Source: Planctomycetota bacterium (lineage in GTDB: Bacteria; Planctomycetota; JAJSAM01; JAJVHW01). From it: a stretch of 64,000 nucleotides of DNA. The position numbers and the translations under genes were made by a program. The notes below the pieces were generated by a model. That model made no database searches and was not told the DNA's origin. It worked only from the letters and a program-made list of their open reading frames with translations. The stretch lies in NCBI GenBank assembly GCA_965248445.1, contig CBDFJG010000003.1, positions 1,536,001 to 1,600,000 of the forward strand, in the 5' to 3' direction. Shown one piece after another: positions 9,682-22,303 of this stretch (position 1 is the stretch's first letter; each line of letters opens with the position of its first letter).

Positions 9682-11688
9682 CTACCGCCCGTCACGCCGC
9701 CGGATCACCACGACCGAGCCCTTGATCTCCCAGTCCAAGCCCCCACCGGCCGCGTCGCAGAGTGCGCGCAGGGCGCCCTCGATCGTGTCGTCCTTCACCG
9801 TGAGCGAGATCGGAACGTGCGCGACGCTGACCGCGGAGGCATCGAAGACGACGTTGAGTCGCCGCGTGGACCGGATGTAGTCGACGACATCCACAAGCCG
9901 CGCCTCGTCGAACACGAACGAGATGCGCTCGTCTCGCAGGCGCTCGAGGATGGTGGCGGCGCGCAACCGCACGGTGATCTCGGTCGTCTCACCGGCAACA
10001 ACGGTCACGGTTCGCCGTTCCGGCACATGACCCTTGGCGGACACGTCGACGACCACGTCGCCGGGCGCGACGCACTCGTGCAGCGCAACGCCATCATCGC
10101 CCACGCGAACTCTCTCGCCCACGCGGCGCGGCACCTCGCGTCCGTTGACCGCCCGTACCTGGTCGTGCTCTGCGACCCACGACAGGGTCACTCTCGCGAC
10201 CGCGGACTCCGCGGCGGCGTCGGTCGCGACGGTCACGCGGACGCCGCCCGCGGCAGGTCCCAGCACGAGCTCCGCCGTGAGTTCGTCACCGTACGCACCC
10301 GTCACACGGAAGCGCGGCGAGTCCTGCATCCCCGGCACGCGTGCGGTCAGCCACTGGAACGACTTCTTCAGCGCGACCTCGAACGCGCCGTCCGACCGTG
10401 ACGTCCCCACATCGCGCGTCCCGTGACGCAGCCGCGAATCCGCAACGGGGCTGCCCGCCGCATCCAGCACGCGCCCGCGCACGATCAGCGCGGTGGGCGC
10501 GTCCGGGTCCAGGCTCTTCGGCTCGATAACCACGGTCGCGCCACCTGTCTCCCAGGTCTCCGCCGCACGGTGAATGACGACGCGCTCTTCCTCGACGACC
10601 GCGCCGAATCCCTGGAGGCGCAAGATGAGTTGCAGAGCGTCCCGTGCCAGCACGGCCTCCGACAGCCGCAGATGGATGCTGCTGCCCTTCAGCGCTTCCA
10701 TGGCACGTTCGTCAACGTGGACGGGTACGTCGGTCACTGCGGAGAAGTGCGCCAGCAAGTCCAGTCCGCCGACGCCTTCGACGTCCAGGTCCATCTTGCG
10801 CGAGTCGAGCAGCTCCGGCACCGAGAGCGTCTTCTCTTCGGTGGGATCGGGCGCGTCCGCCGCGTCGGCGCCATCGGCGGCTCGCGGCTGGACTCGATTT
10901 CGTACGCGCGGCGTGTCCGCCGTCTCCGTTGCTGGTTCGGCCGGCCCCACCTCGTCGGTTCCCGGCTGCGCAGCGGCGTCCGCGACGTCCTGACGCGCGC
11001 CGCCGTCGTCGTGGGTCGCTGCCCACCACCACGCCGCACCCCCACCGACCACAAGAACCACGGCTGCCATCGTCGCCTTCCCCATCAATGCCCCTCCTGT
11101 GGCGACGGCGGCCGCTGCCCCGCTTCCGGTCCGTGTGATCTCCTCACGCATCAGCGGCAGCAGCGTCACGGCGAGCGGCCGGCCATCCGTGTCCTCGCCT
11201 TCGAGCCGGGTCCGTAGCAGTGCACGTGCGCGGCGAAGACGCGCACGTACCGTTTCGAACGGCGCCTCCATCTGCGCTGCGACGTCTGCCATCGACAGTC
11301 CCTCGAAGTAGCGCAACAGGATTGTCTGACGGTAGGGCTCGCGCAGCGCGACGACCGCGGCGGCCACGCGGGCATGAAGCTCCGCGCGCGCCGCGAGCTC
11401 CGCCGGATCCCCGCCGAGCGGCTCCGGTCGCGCGACATGCAGCTCGCGGCGCCGCATCCGCTCACGCGAGCGCCGCCGACGGTACGTGGCGTTGCGCGCT
11501 ACCGTGCGGAACCAGCCCCGCGTCGCAGCGCGATCCACGGGCGGACGGCACAGGGCGGCGAGCCACGTCTGCTGCTCGACGTCGTCCGCCTCGTTCTCGT
11601 CGTCGCAGAGGGCGACGGCCAGGGCGCGGACCCACACACGGTGGACCAGCAGCTCTTCCAACGGGACCACAGCGCCATCTCGACTCAT
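9682..11688 (-). CDS. ECF sigma-70 factor with TM and extracytoplasmic extension (STN-like and carboxypeptidase-regulatory-like domains)
   Basis: Region 2 (EADDVEQQTWLAAL...WFRTVARN), region 4 (LREPYRQTILLRYFEGLSMADVA), a TM segment, and VRGRVLDAAGSPVA. Confidence 0.9.
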   Translation of the reverse strand: MSRDGAVVPLEELLVHRVWVRALAVALCDDENEADDVEQQTWLAALCRPPVDRAATRGWFRTVARNATYRRRRSRERMRRRELHVARPEPLGGDPAELAARAELHARVAAAVVALREPYRQTILLRYFEGLSMADVAAQMEAPFETVRARLRRARALLRTRLEGEDTDGRPLAVTLLPLMREEITRTGSGAAAAVATGGALMGKATMAAVVLVVGGGAAWWWAATHDDGGARQDVADAAAQPGTDEVGPAEPATETADTPRVRNRVQPRAADGADAADAPDPTEEKTLSVPELLDSRKMDLDVEGVGGLDLLAHFSAVTDVPVHVDERAMEALKGSSIHLRLSEAVLARDALQLILRLQGFGAVVEEERVVIHRAAETWETGGATVVIEPKSLDPDAPTALIVRGRVLDAAGSPVADSRLRHGTRDVGTSRSDGAFEVALKKSFQWLTARVPGMQDSPRFRVTGAYGDELTAELVLGPAAGGVRVTVATDAAAESAVARVTLSWVAEHDQVRAVNGREVPRRVGERVRVGDDGVALHECVAPGDVVVDVSAKGHVPERRTVTVVAGETTEITVRLRAATILERLRDERISFVFDEARLVDVVDYIRSTRRLNVVFDASAVSVAHVPISLTVKDDTIEGALRALCDAAGGGLDWEIKGSVVVIRRRDGR

Positions 11689-11983: not shown

Positions 11984-12415
11984 TCACGGCACCACGATCG
12001 CCACGGCGCACTCCCCGAACCGCTCGAAGTCCCCGGGGTTGAGCGTCAGCAGTTCGGTCGCCCCGGCCGCTTGCGCCGCGCGCAGGATGCGCAGGTCGTA
12101 CACCGCTCCGCCCGCGATGTCGTCGTGCGCCGCACGTTCGAGCAGCGCCCAGGTGGCGTTGGGATCCTCCGCAACGATCCGCGCGCGCCCGTGCAGCGCG
12201 GCGTGCAGCAGCGAGAGCGCGTCGCGCGGCGAGATGCGGTAGCCGGCCGGCAGGCGGGTGAAGACCGAGAAGGCCTCGACCAGCACGTGCGCGGGGACCA
12301 CGGGACCGTCCTCCGCCCGCAGCGCTGCCGCGACCGCCACGCGCGCGTCGGCGTGCCGCTCGTGCCATGAGGCCAGTGCGGCGACCAGCACGGATGAGTC
12401 GAGCGCCGTCGTCAC
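11984..12415 (-). CDS. vapC: PIN-domain toxin (VapC-type)
   Basis: ALDSSVLVA, VLVEAFSVFTR, GGAVYDLRI and LLTLN PIN motifs; start overlaps the antitoxin stop. Confidence 0.9.
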   Translation of the reverse strand: MTTALDSSVLVAALASWHERHADARVAVAAALRAEDGPVVPAHVLVEAFSVFTRLPAGYRISPRDALSLLHAALHGRARIVAEDPNATWALLERAAHDDIAGGAVYDLRILRAAQAAGATELLTLNPGDFERFGECAVAIVVP

Positions 12416-12678
12416 TCCCCCCGCTCCCGCAGCCGTCGGCGAGCGCGCCGCACCTCGTCCTCGCCGAGCTCCGGCTGCGGCTCGACCAGCTCGGCCACCT
12501 GGAGCCCGTCGCGCTCGACGGTCCGGATCGCGGCATACACCGGTTCGATCTCGAGTCGCCCGTCCCGCACCCGCAGGCGCAGCGGCGTCCCGGGCACGAT
12601 CCCGAGCTCGTCGCGGAGTGCCTTGGGCACGACCAGCCGCCCCGATCGGTCAATGGCAGTTCGAATGGCAGAACTCAT
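12412..12678 (-). CDS. AbrB/MazE/SpoVT-family antitoxin (VapB-type)
   Basis: TAIDRSGRLVVPKALRDELGIVPGTPLRLRVRDGRLEIEP; GTGA overlap with vapC. Confidence 0.9.
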   Translation of the reverse strand: MSSAIRTAIDRSGRLVVPKALRDELGIVPGTPLRLRVRDGRLEIEPVYAAIRTVERDGLQVAELVEPQPELGEDEVRRARRRLRERGE

Positions 12679-12739
12679 GCCATTCATCCTACCACACGCG
12701 CCCTTCGGCACGCGTGGGGGTCGCTCACGCGTCGCGTGA

Positions 12740-12935
12740 GAGCACCTCCACCCGCGCCACGTGGGCGCCGCGGCGAGCGACGCGTCGAACGTCACGAGCG
12801 GCGCGTCGAGTGCCTCCGCCAGCACGACGTAGGCGGCTTCGTACGCGGTGAGGTTGTCGCGGTACGCAAACAGCCGGTCGAGCCAACGCCGGCTCGCGTG
12901 CCGGCGGATCTGCAGCGACCCAGTAGTAGTCGAGC
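12740..12935 (-). pseudogene. Degraded second PIN/VapC toxin gene
   Basis: Manual translation RHASRRWLDRLFAYRDNLTAYEAAYVVLAEALDAPLVTFDASLAAAP is a typical VapC C-terminal half; the N-terminus is disrupted. Confidence 0.7.
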
Positions 12936-15527: not shown

Positions 15528-15749
15528 CGCACCCTCCCCGCTGATATGTCTCACCCGGTGACATGTTCGCGGGTCAGTCAGTCGCGATGCAACACGCGCT
15601 TACTACGAGTGAGCGCTCCCCATATCGAGACGTTCGTCAGGTTCGAAGTGTGAGCAACTGCCACCGGAACGCGTTGCAGAGTGGTTCCCTTCGCATACGA
15701 GCAAGCACTTGCGACAGCGTCCGACGCGAGCCTCGCGCCAGTCTCCTGC

Positions 15750-16147
15750 ACCACACCCACGCCGCAAGCGGAACATGGTGAAGGCGACGGGCTGAACGCA
15801 GGCGGCGACGGCAGCCCCATCGAGCGCTGCAACGTCTCTCGCGTGCATGGGAACGGGATTCAGAGCAACGGCGCCGGGAATGCCGTGCGCCGCTGCAAGA
15901 TCAACGGCACCGGTTCGCGCGGCATCCAGACAGCGGACGACGACAGCGGCGCTGAGCGCTGCGTGGTGATCGACGTGGGACAGCTCTCCGTCGCGGACTC
16001 GAACGTCGAGAACGGCATCGACGTGGTGCGGCCGGGAAGCCACGTCATCAGGTGCAAGATCATCACGCCCGCGAACCATGGGATCAACGTGCGCGGACCG
16101 GGCATCGACGTCGACCGCTGCAAGATCACGCGTCCCGGCGGACGCGG
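15750..16147 (+). pseudogene. Beta-helix repeat gene fragment cut by IS66 copy 1
   Basis: Repeats IERCNV, VRRCKI, VIRCKI, VDRCKI with NGI/RGI turns; the frame runs into the IS end at 16148 and no continuation is seen after either IS. Confidence 0.6.
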
Positions 16148-17679
16148 GTACCCGTTCAGGGTATGACGATCCGCGGCCTCAGCGCGTGATCGGGAGCGCG
16201 ACGAGAGCCGGCGGCGAGCGGTTGTGCGCGAGTGCCGCGCTGACGTCTGCGAGGTAATCGAAGACGCTCTCGCCACGCTGGCGGAGCGTGGCGGTGACGG
16301 TCAGGATGCGCTCGACGAAGCGGAGTCCGCGCTCGCTCTGACTTCCGTGCGTTGCGCGTCTCCACAGGACCGGCTTGCGCACCGCGCGCTCAGCGGCGTT
16401 GTTCGTCGGGGAGACGCCAGGGACGTCGGCGAAGGTCCACAGAGCCTCCGCTCGGTCGAGCAGATGCCGAGTCGTTCCGCGTACTCGGCGGTGCTTGCTG
16501 TCTGCGCCGCGCACGAGCAGCGTCAGGAGTCGGTCCCATGTGAGACGCAGCTCACGCCGCATGCGGTCGCGGTCCCCGTGCTCGCCGAAGTGACGCTGAG
16601 CTCGCATGACAGCCTGGGCGAGACGCACGGCCTGCTTGCCGAAGCGCCGGCCGCCGCGCGAGCCCTCGGCCAGCGCTCGAAAGTCCCTCTCGAGATGCGC
16701 CCAGCAGATCTGGCGGCGCTCGGTGGGATGCTGGTCGTAAGCGCCCATACGGTCGGTCACGAGGACGCCCCTGAAGCGCTTGCCCACGAGTCGCCGCATG
16801 GCCTTGGCGCTCCTGCGCCGATCGATACGATGGACCGTGGCGTGCTCACAGACCGCGCTCCACAGCCAATGCAGCGTGCCACGACGCGACCACGGTGTCT
16901 CGTCTACATAGGCGACGCTGCTCGTGCGTACGGCCCCGAGGGCCTCGATGTGCGCTGAGGAGATGGCTCCCGACACCCGCTCCTCGATCGCACTGACCGT
17001 GCCCGGTGACATCGAGACGCCGATGACGTCACGCAACAGACGACTGGTCTCGCGCCGCGACAGGCGGAAGACGCCGACCAGAGCCGCGGTGAGCGCACAG
17101 AGTCGCGGGCCGAAGGGACTCGCCGTCACACCGCTTGGCAGCGAGGCAGTGGACGTGGCGCCACAGTCCGTGCACCGTGCCCGGTGCAACCGGTGCTCGG
17201 TCACCTGGATCAGCCGTGGCGGGACCTCGAAGACCTGCTGGCGTGTCGGGGCGCGATCGATCGGGACGAGCACGTCGCTCCCACACGCGCTGCACTCGCG
17301 CGGGCGGTGGTCCTCTACGCCATCGACCTCGGACTCGTCCACGAGCTTGCGCGTCGCCCCTTTGTGGCCGGGCTGCGCACCCTGGCGCTTGTCCGACGGC
17401 GGCTTGCGCCGCCGCCGCTTCTTGGACCACGACGGATCCGAGGACGGTGGGCGCGAGGAGGTGCGGGAGTCCCGGCGAAGACGGCTCTCGAGATCGTCGA
17501 TCCGTGCCGCCTGCCGCTCGATCACCTCCGCCTGCTCGGCAATCGTCTCGTCCCGAGCGTCCAGACGACGGGTCAGGCGCTCGACCAGATCACGCAGCTC
17601 ATCGGTGCCCACATCCGATTCATCGACCGAACGGAAAGCGATCTGGATCCGAGCTCAGAACCAAGGGCTGAACGGGTAC
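16148..17679 (-). mobile_element. IS66-family insertion sequence (single-ORF, ISBst12-like), copy 1, 1532 bp
   Basis: Perfect 12-bp terminal inverted repeats gtacccgttcag...ctgaacgggtac; one transposase ORF; no target-site duplication evident. Confidence 0.9.
16179..17612 (-). CDS. IS66 transposase (TnpC-like)
   Basis: SRTSSRPPSSD, GAQPGHKG, zinc finger CSACG...CTDCG, YVDETPW, VLVTDR, QICWAHL, PTNNAAERAVR. Confidence 0.95.
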   Translation of the reverse strand: MGTDELRDLVERLTRRLDARDETIAEQAEVIERQAARIDDLESRLRRDSRTSSRPPSSDPSWSKKRRRRKPPSDKRQGAQPGHKGATRKLVDESEVDGVEDHRPRECSACGSDVLVPIDRAPTRQQVFEVPPRLIQVTEHRLHRARCTDCGATSTASLPSGVTASPFGPRLCALTAALVGVFRLSRRETSRLLRDVIGVSMSPGTVSAIEERVSGAISSAHIEALGAVRTSSVAYVDETPWSRRGTLHWLWSAVCEHATVHRIDRRRSAKAMRRLVGKRFRGVLVTDRMGAYDQHPTERRQICWAHLERDFRALAEGSRGGRRFGKQAVRLAQAVMRAQRHFGEHGDRDRMRRELRLTWDRLLTLLVRGADSKHRRVRGTTRHLLDRAEALWTFADVPGVSPTNNAAERAVRKPVLWRRATHGSQSERGLRFVERILTVTATLRQRGESVFDYLADVSAALAHNRSPPALVALPITR

Positions 17680-17840
17680 GCGCGCCTGACGGGTGGTCCT
17701 TCGCTATTCGCGGCCCAAACTGTCGTCCGTGCCTGACGAAAGCGGTGGTTCGCTGCCGACGATCGTCTGTCGCGAGGGCCGGGAGCCCGCATCGTTCACG
17801 AGGCTTGCGCGGCAGGAGCGGACCCCGTGAACCATGCGGG

Positions 17841-18950
17841 CTAGCGGGCTGCGACGACGGTGCCGCGACGGACGCCCGGAGTGGCCCGGAACGCGAACCC
17901 GCGCGGGAAGTGCGCGCCCGGGCAGGCCGTCTCGCGGAACTCGTTGTGCAGGCGGAGGTTCTGAGGCGGAATGCCGCAGTAGGCCGCCAGGAACCCGCAC
18001 AGCCGCTCGAGTGCGCGCATCTGAGGAGCGGTCGGGCTGCTCTTCGAGAAGTCACCCACCAGGCAGATCCCGATGCCGTGCTGATTCATCAGGTCGTTGC
18101 CCGCGTGCGCCCCGTCGCGCTGCTGCGTCCACCGGAATCCGGTCTCCACGCGCCCATCCGGCGACCCCGACCCGTTGCCGATCACGAAGTCGTATCCGAG
18201 TCCGTCCCAGCCCTTCTTGCGATGCGCCTCGTCGAACGAGGCGGCGCTGCCGCGGGCGGTCGCGCTGTGATGAACCACGACGTACGTCCATCGGCGGCGA
18301 AGCGACGCGCTCCACTGCGCCCGTTCCACAGGCGTCGGGGAGTTCGCTGCCGCGGGCACCGGAGCCACCGGCGGCGGCCGCCGGCGTGTGACGACAGGAG
18401 GCGGTAGCCGGAAGTCGTGGTTCGGTGTCGTCGGCGTGTATCGCGGTGACGGGGCGTAGCCGGGAGTTGGCGTGTAGATGCGCGGAGCATGCACGACGGG
18501 CGTCGCTTGACCGGCGGTGGCGCCCCAGGCGCGTCGCACCCGCGACGCGTCGCTCGGATCGACCCACGCGGTGCCCTCGGCGACCATGACGGGGAACGTG
18601 GTCGAGAGCCGCGTGCCGCGGACGGTGACCTGAGTGCTCCCCGGGAACAGGGCGATCCGGCCACCGCGCGGCCCCTGGAGCACGATCCGCCCGGAGCTCT
18701 CTTGCGGCAGCTCGTGGAGCCCGAGCGGTCTCGAAATGTCCGCGACCGGGACATAGCCCCCGGGCACCGCTGTCGCCGTGTTGGTCGACGCGCACCCCGC
18801 TGTCAGCAGGAGCCCAGCTGTCAGCAGGAGCCCAGCTGTCAGCAGGAGCCCAGCTGTCAGCAGAGACCCGGCTGCCAGGGGAAGCCCCGCTCCCAGGGGA
18901 AGCCCGGATGCCTGACCGGCGTCGCGTGTTGCTCTCAACGCTCGGATCAC
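17841..18950 (-). CDS. N-acetylmuramoyl-L-alanine amidase (Amidase_2/PGRP-like) lipoprotein
   Basis: WTYVVVHHSAT, GWDGLGYDFVIGNG, GAHAG, IGICLVGDF, H...TACPG; lipobox LTAGC; RBS gagggag before GTG 18950. Confidence 0.9.
   Translation of the reverse strand: MIRALRATRDAGQASGLPLGAGLPLAAGSLLTAGLLLTAGLLLTAGLLLTAGCASTNTATAVPGGYVPVADISRPLGLHELPQESSGRIVLQGPRGGRIALFPGSTQVTVRGTRLSTTFPVMVAEGTAWVDPSDASRVRRAWGATAGQATPVVHAPRIYTPTPGYAPSPRYTPTTPNHDFRLPPPVVTRRRPPPVAPVPAAANSPTPVERAQWSASLRRRWTYVVVHHSATARGSAASFDEAHRKKGWDGLGYDFVIGNGSGSPDGRVETGFRWTQQRDGAHAGNDLMNQHGIGICLVGDFSKSSPTAPQMRALERLCGFLAAYCGIPPQNLRLHNEFRETACPGAHFPRGFAFRATPGVRRGTVVAAR
18799..18906. repeat. 18-bp tandem repeat (3 perfect plus 3 degenerate units) in the amidase signal region
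   Basis: gctgtcagcaggagccca x3 followed by degenerate units; encodes (GLLLTA)n before the lipobox Cys. Confidence 0.9.
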
Positions 18951-19535
18951 GCGCGCTCCCCTCGAAGACCGGCCACGGCTTCCGGGGCCCACTTCATGGA
19001 TCGACCAACGGGCCGCGCGCATGCAACCACCCTGCAGAGGGCCAGACGGAGAACTGCGCGGAGAGGCGGCCGACGGGCGGTCCTCAAACACACCCGACCG
19101 TCGACCTGCCTGATCGTCACACCCTGCGTCCATCGGCGCACGGCTCCGTCAGATGCCGCGGAACGCGAGGCGACGACGACCGGCCGCGCGAGCGTCTCCG
19201 GACCACGACATCTTGTGGACCGATGGACAACGAGCGCCATTCTTGGTGGGTTCAGCCTCTCCGTCAAGGCAGTTCGTCGGATTCGCCGTCCGTGGGCAAT
19301 CGTGTTCTCCACGTCTGTGGAATGTCGATTTCCGCAGAAAGATTCACCGTCGCCCACGCGCTCGGCAGCGACGGGTCGCGGAGCGGGCGTCGCGCGGCTC
19401 GCCGACGTCTCCACCGCCGCGTCGCGGTCGCAACGACCGACCGCACCGATGCTTGCGTTCTCGCGCTGCCGACTCTCCACATTCCACCGTCTCTCCCGGG
19501 CTCCTGTGGAGGCCGATGTGGACGCATTTTCGCCG

Positions 19536-19564
19536 TTGAAACCCAACGCCGCCGGTCCTAGCTT
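19536..19564 (+). promoter_or_regulatory. Sigma70-type promoter for the candidate large ncRNA
   Basis: TTGAAA (19536-41), 17-nt spacer, TAGCTT (19559-64); the closing helix starts 8 nt downstream. Confidence 0.6.
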
Positions 19565-19571
19565 CTCCCTC

Positions 19572-20639
19572 GGTCGGACGCGGTAGGCGACATCGTTGAC
19601 CTGCGCGCCGAATAGCTCTTTGAGATCTCGGTGGCAACGGAAGGAAGGGCACCAAGACGCGGTTCGCCGCGACGAGGTGTCGGTGGGGACTTCGGTCCTC
19701 GAACACTTCCGGAACCGCGTGGTGTGCCGGCATCGCGCGGAATGCATCGGGAGGCGCCTGAGGCGTCTCGGCGATGCGCAGAGAAACCCCAGGGGAGTCG
19801 CGGATCTCATCGAGAACCGCACGTCACCCTGTCGGACAGACCCTGTGACAACGGCCCGAGGGGCGCAGTTCGCTGCGTGACACGGGTGGAATTGTGCGAG
19901 GGGGATACGGCGGGTCCCGGCCCGTCTGCGACAGATGATGGACTTCGAAGGGGAACCCCGATACGGCGAGAAAGCTGCACTTAACGGGTGTGGCGGAACC
20001 GCTGGGCAATGTGAACGGAGGGCGCCGAAGCAAACGGCGATCGGCCTCGTGAAGCCTCAGACTTCGAGACTGGTCGCAACCAACACGGCGTACCGGAGCA
20101 ACGGTCGGCGAGAGCTGCCCGGACTGCAACGGACACACGGCCCCACAAGGTACGGGGCGAGGAAACCCCACGAGTGGCGATGGTCGTCGACGACCGTCAA
20201 GTGACAGGGGAGTAAACCGTCGAGGAGGGAAAGAACCTCGAGGACGGAACGTGCCGGGTGAGGCAAACCCGGGTTAAGCGGACCCTGCCGCCCACGCCGC
20301 TGGAGGGGCAATGAACCCCAGGAGGGGAAGTGAGGATCACCGTAATGATCCACACCGGCGGTAAGGCAAGACCCTGAGCGGGCAGCCAAGCCTGAGGGAG
20401 ACGTCCACGTGGCAACACGAGGACCGGTCGCCCGACTGAAGACCCCACGGTCGTGTCACTCGGCACGACGAAGCAGGTCGCCGCAAACCAATACGCGGCT
20501 AGGTTGAGCGAAGAGGAACTCCGAGAGGCGGCGAAACCCTGAGAGGTGTCGGTCCTGAGACGGCAACGTCCCAAGACACAATTCCCTACCGACCGCAAAC
20601 CCCTGAAGAGGCAAACACGAATAGCCACCGCGTTCGACC
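19572..20639 (+). ncRNA. Candidate large (~1070 nt) highly structured non-coding RNA, class unassigned
   Basis: Nested 5'/3' helices 19572-88/20624-39, 19616-21/20605-10, 19628-34/20586-92 and 19639-42/20582-85; many UUCG/GCAA hairpins; repeated AA(A)CCCYGARRG-like modules; promoter upstream and hairpin downstream; no credible protein ORF. Confidence 0.75.
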
Positions 20640-20648
20640 ACCCGGCAG

Positions 20649-20682
20649 CACGGCCCGCGCACCAATCGGTGCGCGGGCCGTG
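20649..20682 (+). terminator. Perfect 15-bp hairpin 3' of the ncRNA (terminator or processing stem)
   Basis: cacggcccgcgcacc-aatc-ggtgcgcgggccgtg; the U tract is weak. Confidence 0.65.
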
Positions 20683-20731
20683 GTCGATTCGTAACCGTTC
20701 ACCCCTTGACAGCGTGTGAGCCTCAGCGTGC

Positions 20732-22263
20732 GTACCCGTTCAGGGTATGACGATCCGCGGCCTCAGCGCGTGATCGGGAGCGCGACGAGAGCCGGCGGCG
20801 AGCGGTTGTGCGCGAGTGCCGCGCTGACGTCTGCGAGGTAATCGAAGACGCTCTCGCCACGCTGGCGGAGCGTGGCGGTGACGGTCAGGATGCGCTCGAC
20901 GAAGCGGAGTCCGCGCTCGCTCTGACTTCCGTGCGTTGCGCGTCTCCACAGGACCGGCTTGCGCACCGCGCGCTCAGCGGCGTTGTTCGTCGGGGAGACG
21001 CCAGGGACGTCGGCGAAGGTCCACAGAGCCTCCGCTCGGTCGAGCAGATGCCGAGTCGTTCCGCGTACTCGGCGGTGCTTGCTGTCTGCGCCGCGCACGA
21101 GCAGCGTCAGGAGTCGGTCCCATGTGAGACGCAGCTCACGCCGCATGCGGTCGCGGTCCCCGTGCTCGCCGAAGTGACGCTGAGCTCGCATGACAGCCTG
21201 GGCGAGACGCACGGCCTGCTTGCCGAAGCGCCGGCCGCCGCGCGAGCCCTCGGCCAGCGCTCGAAAGTCCCTCTCGAGATGCGCCCAGCAGATCTGGCGG
21301 CGCTCGGTGGGATGCTGGTCGTAAGCGCCCATACGGTCGGTCACGAGGACGCCCCTGAAGCGCTTGCCCACGAGTCGCCGCATGGCCTTGGCGCTCCTGC
21401 GCCGATCGATACGATGGACCGTGGCGTGCTCACAGACCGCGCTCCACAGCCAATGCAGCGTGCCACGACGCGACCACGGTGTCTCGTCTACATAGGCGAC
21501 GCTGCTCGTGCGTACGGCCCCGAGGGCCTCGATGTGCGCTGAGGAGATGGCTCCCGACACCCGCTCCTCGATCGCACTGACCGTGCCCGGTGACATCGAG
21601 ACGCCGATGACGTCACGCAACAGACGACTGGTCTCGCGCCGCGACAGGCGGAAGACGCCGACCAGAGCCGCGGTGAGCGCACAGAGTCGCGGGCCGAAGG
21701 GACTCGCCGTCACACCGCTTGGCAGCGAGGCAGTGGACGTGGCGCCACAGTCCGTGCACCGTGCCCGGTGCAACCGGTGCTCGGTCACCTGGATCAGCCG
21801 TGGCGGGACCTCGAAGACCTGCTGGCGTGTCGGGGCGCGATCGATCGGGACGAGCACGTCGCTCCCACACGCGCTGCACTCGCGCGGGCGGTGGTCCTCT
21901 ACGCCATCGACCTCGGACTCGTCCACGAGCTTGCGCGTCGCCCCTTTGTGGCCGGGCTGCGCACCCTGGCGCTTGTCCGACGGCGGCTTGCGCCGCCGCC
22001 GCTTCTTGGACCACGACGGATCCGAGGACGGTGGGCGCGAGGAGGTGCGGGAGTCCCGGCGAAGACGGCTCTCGAGATCGTCGATCCGTGCCGCCTGCCG
22101 CTCGATCACCTCCGCCTGCTCGGCAATCGTCTCGTCCCGAGCGTCCAGACGACGGGTCAGGCGCTCGACCAGATCACGCAGCTCATCGGTGCCCACATCC
22201 GATTCATCGACCGAACGGAAAGCGATCTGGATCCGAGCTCAGAACCAAGGGCTGAACGGGTAC
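20732..22263 (-). mobile_element. IS66-family insertion sequence, copy 2 (direct repeat of copy 1)
   Basis: Same terminal inverted repeats and length, offset 4584 bp; identical transposase translation. Confidence 0.9.
20763..22196 (-). CDS. IS66 transposase (TnpC-like)
   Basis: Identical 477-aa translation to 16179-17612. Confidence 0.95.
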   Translation of the reverse strand: MGTDELRDLVERLTRRLDARDETIAEQAEVIERQAARIDDLESRLRRDSRTSSRPPSSDPSWSKKRRRRKPPSDKRQGAQPGHKGATRKLVDESEVDGVEDHRPRECSACGSDVLVPIDRAPTRQQVFEVPPRLIQVTEHRLHRARCTDCGATSTASLPSGVTASPFGPRLCALTAALVGVFRLSRRETSRLLRDVIGVSMSPGTVSAIEERVSGAISSAHIEALGAVRTSSVAYVDETPWSRRGTLHWLWSAVCEHATVHRIDRRRSAKAMRRLVGKRFRGVLVTDRMGAYDQHPTERRQICWAHLERDFRALAEGSRGGRRFGKQAVRLAQAVMRAQRHFGEHGDRDRMRRELRLTWDRLLTLLVRGADSKHRRVRGTTRHLLDRAEALWTFADVPGVSPTNNAAERAVRKPVLWRRATHGSQSERGLRFVERILTVTATLRQRGESVFDYLADVSAALAHNRSPPALVALPITR

Positions 22264-22303
22264 CCTGCAAGTGCCCCCGCGGGCCACCGGGATTCCCGGA
22301 CGG

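Follow-up and report, generated by a model that had tools for sequence, protein, structure and literature searches.

A large structured RNA gene of about 1.07 kb in a Planctomycetota bacterium, probably a member of an undescribed RNA family

We describe a stand-alone gene for a large structured RNA in the genome of a Planctomycetota bacterium (assembly GCA_965248445.1). The window, by which we mean the whole stretch of DNA that was analysed, comprises 64,000 nucleotides (nt) of contig CBDFJG010000003.1 (positions 1,536,001 to 1,600,000). About 1.1 kb without a credible gene lie in it between a divergent amidase gene and an insertion sequence (IS) element of the IS66 family, and positions 19572-20639 of the + strand hold the RNA gene, ~1,068 nt (~1.07 kb) in length. 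The original prediction, made from the letters of the window, had proposed a stand-alone, possibly undescribed giant non-coding RNA (ncRNA) at this place, and the proposal is supported by negative Rfam searches, by homologues, by covariation, by the absence of a coding signal and by contigs from RNA libraries. That this is a real gene for a structured ncRNA we regard as nearly certain. The features of the locus are listed below; helix numbers are those of the full-length consensus structure.

19536..19564, + strand: promoter-like TTGAAA-N17-TAGCTT of the sigma-70 type, a weak match (direct reading and alignment position)
19572..20639, + strand: the RNA, from the 5' to the 3' strand of its closing helix, ~1,068 nt (collinear homologues, covariation, RNA-library contigs)
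19572..19588, + strand: 5' strand of the closing helix, pairing with 20624-20639 (helix 1; end-to-end duplex in 11 of 11 genomes)
19589..19786, + strand: variable 5' region with UUCG-capped hairpins at 19658-19671 and 19687-19698 (length and sequence differ between genomes)
19787..19953, + strand: domain A, closed by CCCC-AGG-GGAGU / ACUUC-GAA-GGGG (helices 14-21)
20041..20073, + strand: conserved hairpin, helix 26, with loop CCUCAGA (8 of 11 pairs with double changes)
20166..20308, + strand: domain B, the pan-phylum core (RNAalifold on 33 sequences; model R1)
20316..20611, + strand: domain C, closed by CCCC-AGG-AGGGG / CCCCU-GAA-GAGG (helices 36-51)
20624..20639, + strand: 3' strand of the closing helix, pairing with 19572-19588 (evidence as for the 5' strand)
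20649..20682, + strand: perfect 15-bp GC-rich hairpin, presumed terminator, without a U tract (direct reading)

The composition and the folding energy of the stretch are asymmetric between the strands. The + strand is purine-rich, as had been remarked from the letters (AT skew up to +0.47, GC skew ~+0.13), and its fold energy of -485.7 kcal/mol compares with -440.8 +/- 10.9 kcal/mol in 40 dinucleotide shuffles (z -4.1), whereas the - strand has no stable excess over its shuffles (z -1.3).

The two ends of the RNA are clamped together. The original prediction paired 19572-88 with 20624-39, and in 11 of 11 genomes of the window's taxonomic order the first 40 nt do anneal with the last 50, at -31 to -51 kcal/mol, an energy reached by at most 1 of 200 shuffles in 7 of the 11 genomes and by at most 8 of 200 in 10 of them. 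Helix 1 of the consensus (19572-80 / 20631-39 in window numbering) has changed on both sides in 5 of its 9 aligned pairs, and at least five different complementary versions of its sequence are readable among relatives.

The full-length consensus, obtained with RNAalifold from a MAFFT alignment of 11 members of the order, contains 270 pairs in 51 helices. Structure prediction and counting used the same alignment, and on it 84.0% of cells are paired, compared with 72.5% in shuffled controls (0 of 500 reach the observed value) and 40-44% in slid controls. Double changes occur in 154 of the 270 pairs (97 shuffled, 63-75 slid), and the covariation score is 0.389 (0.200 shuffled, ~0.10 slid). Because of the size of this gap, and because of helices such as helix 45 in domain C, where 10 of 10 pairs carry double changes, there is little doubt that most of the molecule is base-paired. 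Pairing reaches 98% in helices 14 and 15 of domain A, whose 9 pairs include 5 with double changes, and the CCUCAGA loop of helix 26 is invariant within the order. The variable 5' region contains a conserved GCUCUUUGA at 19614-19622, and many metagenome contigs have UCUUUGA close to their 5' end.

Most of the stems that had been read from the single sequence reappear in this consensus. The five predicted tetraloop hairpins lie at 19658-19671, 19687-19698, 19865-19876, 20408-20419 and 20559-20570; the last three are consensus helices 21, 44 and 51, with double changes in 5 of 6, 7 of 8 and 5 of 7 pairs, respectively. The predicted stem ccgggt/acccgg is helix 35 of the conserved core, and ggatca/tgatcc is helix 38. 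The three helices that had been nested inside the closing helix (ctcttt/gaagag, tcggtgg/ctaccga and ggaa/ttcc) fared differently and are not borne out: 64.9% of their cells are paired compared with 63.7% in shuffled controls, 152 of 500 shuffles equal the observed value, and their 3' partners are either part of domain C or too conserved to test.

At least three domains lie between the clamped ends, and the same closing motif recurs throughout the molecule. It consists of a G/C helix of 4-5 bp, a 3x3 internal loop of the form purine-N-purine on both strands and a second helix; it closes each domain and several sub-domains, including nested sub-domains of domain C, and occurs at least six times in the window RNA (a further example is CCCC-ACG-AGUGGC / GCCGCU-GGA-GGGG). 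Covariation favours long-range pairing of these elements over local hairpins of the form CCCC-loop-GGGG, as where C-G is replaced by U-A at both ends of helix P1 of domain B.

Domain B is the most widely conserved part, the core. Helices P1 and P2 close it, with the 3x3 purine loop between them; P3 is a hairpin whose loop reads UGAAACAA in most lineages; and P4 encloses a three-way junction with P5-P6 and P7, whose joining strands GGAGnAAA, AACG and GUGGAC are invariant or nearly so. RNAalifold on 33 core sequences yields 34 pairs, 27 of them compensatory. The covariance model R1 built from these sequences matches window positions 20158-20332 (~175 nt) at 146.8 bits and finds the core at full length in 65 non-redundant sources. 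In a 74-row core alignment, which was fitted to the model, 96.5% of cells are paired (68.2% shuffled, with 0 of 500 reaching the observed value; 40-46% slid), 31 of 34 pairs carry double changes, and the covariation score is 0.718 (0.211 shuffled, ~0.10 slid). The check for covariation that accompanied the original prediction is answered by both alignments: the homologues covary strongly over the full length and in the core. There is also a weak second match of the core model in the window at 20382-20551 (12 bits), and matches of 33-38 bits occur at nine places in relatives, at the equivalent position in the neighbouring part of the RNA. These matches lend modest support to, and suggest, growth of the RNA by internal duplication of the core.

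The existence of homologues, another of the proposed checks, is established for the full length within the order and for the core in three phyla. In its own genome (G000) the RNA gene is single-copy, and only a 46-nt terminal hairpin recurs. In BLAST searches all 7 genomes from the window's taxonomic family have the RNA, as do 4 of the 9 genomes from elsewhere in the order; the covariance model adds two, so that 14 of 17 order genomes carry it, the window's own included, with the remaining three (88-93% complete) covered by the BLAST search only. A 27-nt BLAST match in one genome (G025) was taken as chance. The homologues in the order are collinear end to end and 1,059-1,248 nt long. The closest named records are metagenome-assembled genomes (MAGs) labelled Planctomycetota, and the core occurs in MAGs labelled Planctomycetota/Phycisphaerae, Myxococcota/'Deltaproteobacteria' and, once, Vicinamibacteria, as well as under some implausible labels; the taxon labels are those of the MAG records, and some are clearly wrong. 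In samples drawn evenly over whole phyla, with the query genome counted each time, R1 has matches in 21 of 151 genomes from the phylum of the window (13 of 95 when those of good quality are counted), in 11 of 151 of the phylum of a Myxococcales-labelled carrier and in 2 of 151 of the Acidobacteriota-labelled phylum of the Vicinamibacteria-labelled carrier. Several genomes carry two copies. The RNA was not found in the phage records, plasmids and viral contigs searched.

The stretch is also represented in RNA libraries, which bears on the expression check proposed with the original prediction. Parts of it are listed for nineteen RNA-library runs; four of these, one from each of four studies, were aligned to the stretch, and the other 15, with small shares, were not used for habitat. 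Contigs of the four libraries cover 19579-20620 at >=90% identity, in pieces of up to 435 nt that at their closest differ at 2 of 199 nt, and such contigs attest presence in the libraries, not strand, ends or level. Two studies have contigs that start at 19579 and 19581, which hints weakly at the position of the 5' end. No contig of the four RNA runs lies on 19300-19569 or 20650-20900, which we treat as no finding and do not count for the ends of the RNA. Depth figures sum contigs of many organisms and were not used as an expression measure. Joints within contigs (skips of 165-492 nt and one back-joint) were considered as splicing or circles; they have low depth and were read as chimeric assembly between repeated motifs.

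Metagenome contigs are more numerous. The first search pattern was too loose, nhmmer confirming 25 of 119 loci, and a strict core pattern is present in more than 121 metagenome contigs among the matches listed; the strand bias of these matches may reflect scan order and is not interpreted. For 80 loci with flanks of up to 900 nt, 47 contigs end 360-560 nt after the core motif (388-431 nt in the window), and 33 of these 47 are ~1.0-1.5 kb in total. In some, the two strands of the closing helix are exactly the contig ends (L219, L263 and L276, read by eye); RNAduplex applied to long segments at the ends of whole metagenome contigs gives no separation from shuffles. Such ends would be expected if some of the records are assemblies derived from transcripts. 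One metagenome contig of 1,799 nt (L260/L261) contains two core motifs 899 nt apart on the same strand, that is, tandem copies of the RNA.

The RNA gene is flanked by a promoter-like site and a presumed terminator. The original prediction placed a promoter 8 nt before the RNA and a terminator hairpin after it. Its hexamers, TTGAAA at 19536-19541 and TAGCTT at 19559-19564, and their 17-nt spacer are as described; the distance to GGTCGG at 19572 is 7 nt rather than 8, and the match is weak. In the alignment of the order's 11 genomes, 10 have the pattern TTGNNN-N17-TANNNT in the same position. The perfect stem at 20649-20682 is likewise present, starting 9 nt after the closing helix, and most of the 11 aligned relatives have a GC-rich hairpin there too; the hairpin of the window lacks the U tract of a typical terminator. 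In a relative of 50% GC, TTGACA-17-TATACT and a canonical terminator lie 1,115 nt apart and flank the core, and in other Planctomycetota lineages a U run directly follows the closing helix, which doubles as the terminator stem. The genomes of the family share conserved blocks (CTCAACAGTG, TGTGGAG and TGTGGAT) ~60-110 nt upstream of the RNA start (window ~19470-19535); lying before the -35 hexamer, they may be a candidate binding site for a regulator.

A different type of promoter accompanies the RNA in some other lineages. MAGs labelled Vicinamibacteria and Polyangiales have a short form of ~0.55 kb, composed of the closing helix, the core and the 3' domain, which begins just after a sequence TGGCAC-N5-WTGCT. 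The sigma-54-type pattern TGGCAC-N5-WTGCH precedes the core, at -67 to -690, in 5 of 19 loci from outside Planctomycetota, with ~0.1 expected by chance (an estimate), and in none of 17 other Planctomycetota loci in its strict form. In two Planctomycetota loci of one family (L173:3-572, + strand, and L176:2677-3213, - strand), a gene for a sigma-54 activator with domains Sigma54_activat, AAA_lid_14 and HTH_8 immediately precedes the RNA in the same orientation, and loose -24/-12 matches at the expected distance occur in these two loci only. Two Myxococcales-labelled MAGs (loci L054 and L074) share a block TGTCCAGA..AATTCAAT.CACAGAGCGCG ~200 nt upstream of their sigma-54-type promoters, which may be a candidate activator binding site.

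Comparison with known RNA families gave no match. At gathering thresholds, none of the 4,227 models of Rfam 15 matches the 64-kb window; at E up to 10, the only matches on 19300-20900 are miRNA-type models on the terminal hairpin, which score 12-22 bits where their thresholds are 61-268 and which we attribute to chance; and seven homologous loci from three phyla have no match at E up to 0.5. The Rfam check suggested with the original prediction is thus negative. The OLE model (RF01071) at E up to 1 finds no match in the window's own genome, a search that is unvalidated in that the control genomes were silent too, and the ROOL model (RF03087) yields no candidates there, with controls also silent; the all-family scans agree in both cases. 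GOLLD, for which Rfam presumably holds a model, has no match in the all-family Rfam scans that alone covered it, and no phage context was found. Group II intron models, including group-II-D1D4-1, do not match either, the overlapping open reading frames (ORFs) contain no Pfam family, and the gene is single-copy. Since RNase P, tmRNA, 6S and SRP RNAs are found above cut-offs elsewhere in the genome in canonical form, the RNA gene is not a divergent form of one of them, in keeping with the earlier remark that hallmarks of RNase P, tmRNA and group II introns are missing. In the literature searched, whose coverage is incomplete, we found no description of the RNA, nor did 'MISL', mentioned with the original prediction as a large bacterial RNA, occur there as an RNA name. 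We conclude that 19572-20639 (+) is probably the gene for one representative of a family of large structured ncRNAs that are transcribed independently, and that this family is likely to be one not yet described.

In kind, and not by homology, the RNA falls within a loose class of large ornate stand-alone ncRNAs that includes OLE, GOLLD, ROOL and raiA: it has its own transcription unit, exceeds 500 nt, has extensive covarying structure and is conserved across genera. OLE is ~600 nt long, occurs in Bacillota and is co-transcribed with genes for partner proteins (oapA and others), and ROOL and GOLLD are often found in phages or prophages of Bacillota and of rumen or lake bacteria. The window RNA resembles OLE in being stand-alone, longer than 500 nt and highly structured, with many conserved junction letters and apparent abundance; it differs in its ~1.07 kb, in its occurrence in Planctomycetota, Myxococcota and Acidobacteriota and in having no partner gene common to its lineages. 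With ROOL and GOLLD it shares a large, ornate, multi-domain form without known function; unlike them, it is chromosomal and was not found in phage, plasmid and viral collections. OLE is reported to have an unknown biochemical function tied to stress adaptation (PMC12054373, PMC10898510), and ROOL and GOLLD are reported to form RNA-only homo-oligomeric assemblies as seen by cryo-electron microscopy (PMC12286853). The latter assemblies serve as a model for the particle proposed below.

Other comparisons concern parts of the architecture or its control. RNase P RNA and group II introns share with the window RNA several domains, long-range closing helices, GNRA-type loops, A-rich linkers and invariant junction letters; the window RNA, however, has no recognisable catalytic motif and no match to an intron domain. 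The GlmY and Qrr RNAs have sigma-54 promoters or an adjacent activator gene, as have some members of the present family, and 6S and CsrB RNAs resemble the window RNA in its apparent abundance. These four are 100-350 nt long with simple folds, whereas the window RNA is three to ten times larger and has a conserved complex junction.

Clamped ends, A-rich loops and invariant junctions characterise RNAs that take on a definite three-dimensional shape, among them RNase P, group II introns and the OLE, ROOL and GOLLD assemblies. Because the window RNA has clamped ends, A-rich loops and linkers beside repeated internal loops, and an invariant junction, it most likely acts, by analogy with these RNAs, in trans as a compact and stable particle. 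Such a particle could be made of RNA only or contain proteins encoded elsewhere. The A-rich loops and linkers (GAAAC, GCAAAC) would dock into the repeated internal loops and compact the fold, making them candidates for A-minor docking, and the invariant three-way junction would be the functional centre, possibly a ligand, protein or catalytic site. Synthesis of the RNA may be tied to nutrient or stress signalling, given the sigma-54-type promoters, the adjacent activator gene and, in the window's order, a neighbouring gene for a PtsN-like enzyme IIA (EIIA) of the phosphotransferase system (PTS). As to the mechanism itself, a compact scaffold or homo-oligomer of the OLE, ROOL and GOLLD sort is a tentative suggestion by analogy, a ribonucleoprotein with a protein encoded at an unlinked locus is an equally tentative one, and a ribozyme appears improbable.

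Several points weigh against the proposal of a regulated, compact trans-acting RNA, or limit it. The data indicate no protein partner, ligand or activity, and compaction and oligomer formation are proposed by analogy. With the full-length structure predicted and counted on one MAFFT alignment, its controls lean towards structure, as does the core alignment fitted to its model; some 5' and middle helices are only 65-75% paired, so that the fold is partly uncertain and the 5' half poorly resolved. A consensus promoter scan does not call TTGAAA-N17-TAGCTT, whose second hexamer matches in 3 of 6 letters, and a terminator scan finds nothing at the hairpin 20649-20682, where the U tract is absent. 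The RNA-library contigs are silent on strand, ends and level. The sigma-54 link holds for a minority of loci, the link with EIIA is confined to one order and may be mere inherited gene order, and outside the order no neighbouring gene is common across phyla. Finally, the family could be in print beyond the literature searched.

Among other explanations, the one that survives best is that the RNA is a protein-sequestering sponge of the CsrB/RsmZ or 6S kind, whose repeated modules would bind one regulator, perhaps dimeric, which high levels of the RNA would titrate under conditions signalled through sigma-54. This would fit the six or more occurrences of one closing motif, the weak matches of the core model to neighbouring parts of the RNA, the frequency of purine-rich loops with GGA or GAG, the assembly of RNA-library contigs even from a run of 7 million letters and the regulated appearance of the promoters in some lineages. 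Known sponges, however, conserve short loop motifs and little else. Here repeated purine-rich loops of the Csr/Rsm type are present, but their letters vary (ANG/GNA, GAG/GNG, GGA/AUG), while it is the long-range helices and the three-way junction, with ~25 near-invariant letters, that are conserved across phyla, and no candidate binding protein is linked to the RNA gene. We regard a sponge as unlikely.

The RNA might instead belong to a mobile element: it could be a group II intron that has degenerated, a guide RNA of a retron-like or IS-associated kind, or an RNA carried by phages, as GOLLD is. The patchy distribution across three phyla and the presence of two copies in some genomes would agree with this, and in the window two IS66-family copies (16134-17693 and ~20720-22270) bracket the amidase and RNA genes in the manner of a composite transposon. 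These copies are direct, 99% identical over the 300 nt compared and spaced by 4,584, and each encodes a 477-amino-acid transposase (DDE_Tnp_IS66, zf-IS66, DUF6444) and has terminal inverted repeats. The IS66 flanks are, however, absent in relatives, in which the chromosomal neighbourhood is stable across three families; the RNA gene is single-copy in its own genome; no reverse transcriptase, transposase or phage gene stands beside the RNA in ~40 loci; and neither an intron match nor an occurrence in phage records, plasmids or viral contigs was found. A mobile-element RNA is very unlikely.

That the RNA serves the downstream gene as a long cis-acting leader or 5' regulatory region is largely refuted and slightly less probable still. 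The idea arises from the arrangement in the window's order, where the divergent amidase gene and the RNA are followed by a gene of ~150 codons for a PTS_EIIA_2 (PtsN-like) protein: where the contig of an order genome extends far enough, the EIIA gene stands downstream of the RNA on its strand (9 of 9 genomes), and the amidase gene is likewise present (9 of 9). Yet the GC-rich hairpin and ~250 nt separate the RNA from the EIIA gene, outside the order a different gene lies downstream, in at least 10 loci on the other strand, and many metagenome contigs end at the 3' end of the RNA. The window's own genome keeps the RNA even though IS elements have parted it from EIIA onto different contigs. There the EIIA orthologue directly follows an identical 46-nt copy of the RNA's terminal hairpin, which lies (G000:C1:236681-237700; L002, L200) between the EIIA gene and an IS66-family element 66% identical to that of the window; it seems that the ancestral locus was split at the terminal hairpin by an IS-mediated rearrangement that left the RNA gene intact. 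In the window, 15681-16163 (+) was considered as an EIIA gene and rejected, as it encodes a beta-helix protein.

The weakest alternative, that the stretch encodes one or more small proteins or a pseudogene remnant and is conserved at the protein level, finds a basis in the open frames of 89-117 amino acids that high-GC DNA yields on the + strand (57-143 over both strands), and it is hardly credible: none of the ten overlapping ORFs checked has a Pfam family, the longest sense ORFs vary in place and length in each of 11 genomes so that no ORF is conserved, only 62 of 421 indels have a length that is a multiple of three, and substitutions are pairwise compensatory. ORF maps of the high-GC homologous loci are uninformative. 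The original statement that no overlapping ORF resembles a protein holds on these data, and the proposed check of coding potential is negative. The results above contradict each of the three readings, as a cis leader, as part of a mobile element and as coding sequence.

The remaining neighbourhood can be summarised briefly. The amidase gene (17841-19133, - strand) encodes an N-acetylmuramoyl-L-alanine amidase (Pfam Amidase_2). On the opposite strand to the RNA, it contains six tandem 18-nt units (CCCAGCTGTCAGCAGGAG and variants) at 18795-18902, predicted to encode a repeated hexapeptide linker. Outside the order, genes for BipA, YbeY with DksA, YggL, RtcB with archease, PhoH/PIN and a cold-shock protein are each nearby once or twice, a scatter that is suggestive of RNA or ribosome stress biology. 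Elsewhere in the window, adjacent genes for a PIN-domain protein and a MazE/AbrB-type antitoxin (11987-12825, - strand) form an apparent toxin-antitoxin pair, and 9685-11688 (- strand) encodes a 668-amino-acid protein in which ECF sigma-factor regions 2 and 4 are joined to a C-terminal CarboxypepD_reg domain.

To our knowledge, bacterial RNAs of this size with a conserved covarying architecture are very few, namely rRNAs, RNase P, introns, OLE, GOLLD and ROOL, and each such large RNA has opened a field. The window RNA is larger than OLE, ROOL or GOLLD; it is homologous to no described family and, as a phenomenon, stands beside these three. Its carriers are mostly uncultured sediment and soil bacteria of three phyla, which would explain how surveys centred on cultured genomes missed it. 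A far-reaching picture, which we hold to be rather doubtful as a whole, is that of a new class of kilobase RNA machine: a self-folding and perhaps self-assembling particle or ribozyme, with repeated modules around an invariant junction, switched on through nutrient signalling of the sigma-54/PTS-Ntr type and, in sediments and soils, one of the more abundant transcripts made by uncultured Planctomycetota, Myxococcota and Acidobacteriota. The modular fold, with its repeated internal-loop motif and invariant junction, is a new subject for work on RNA structure. For the biology of the carrier lineages, the RNA offers a possible new link between sigma-54/PTS-Ntr signalling and a large RNA, and a ready marker transcript by which these lineages may be followed in metatranscriptomes.

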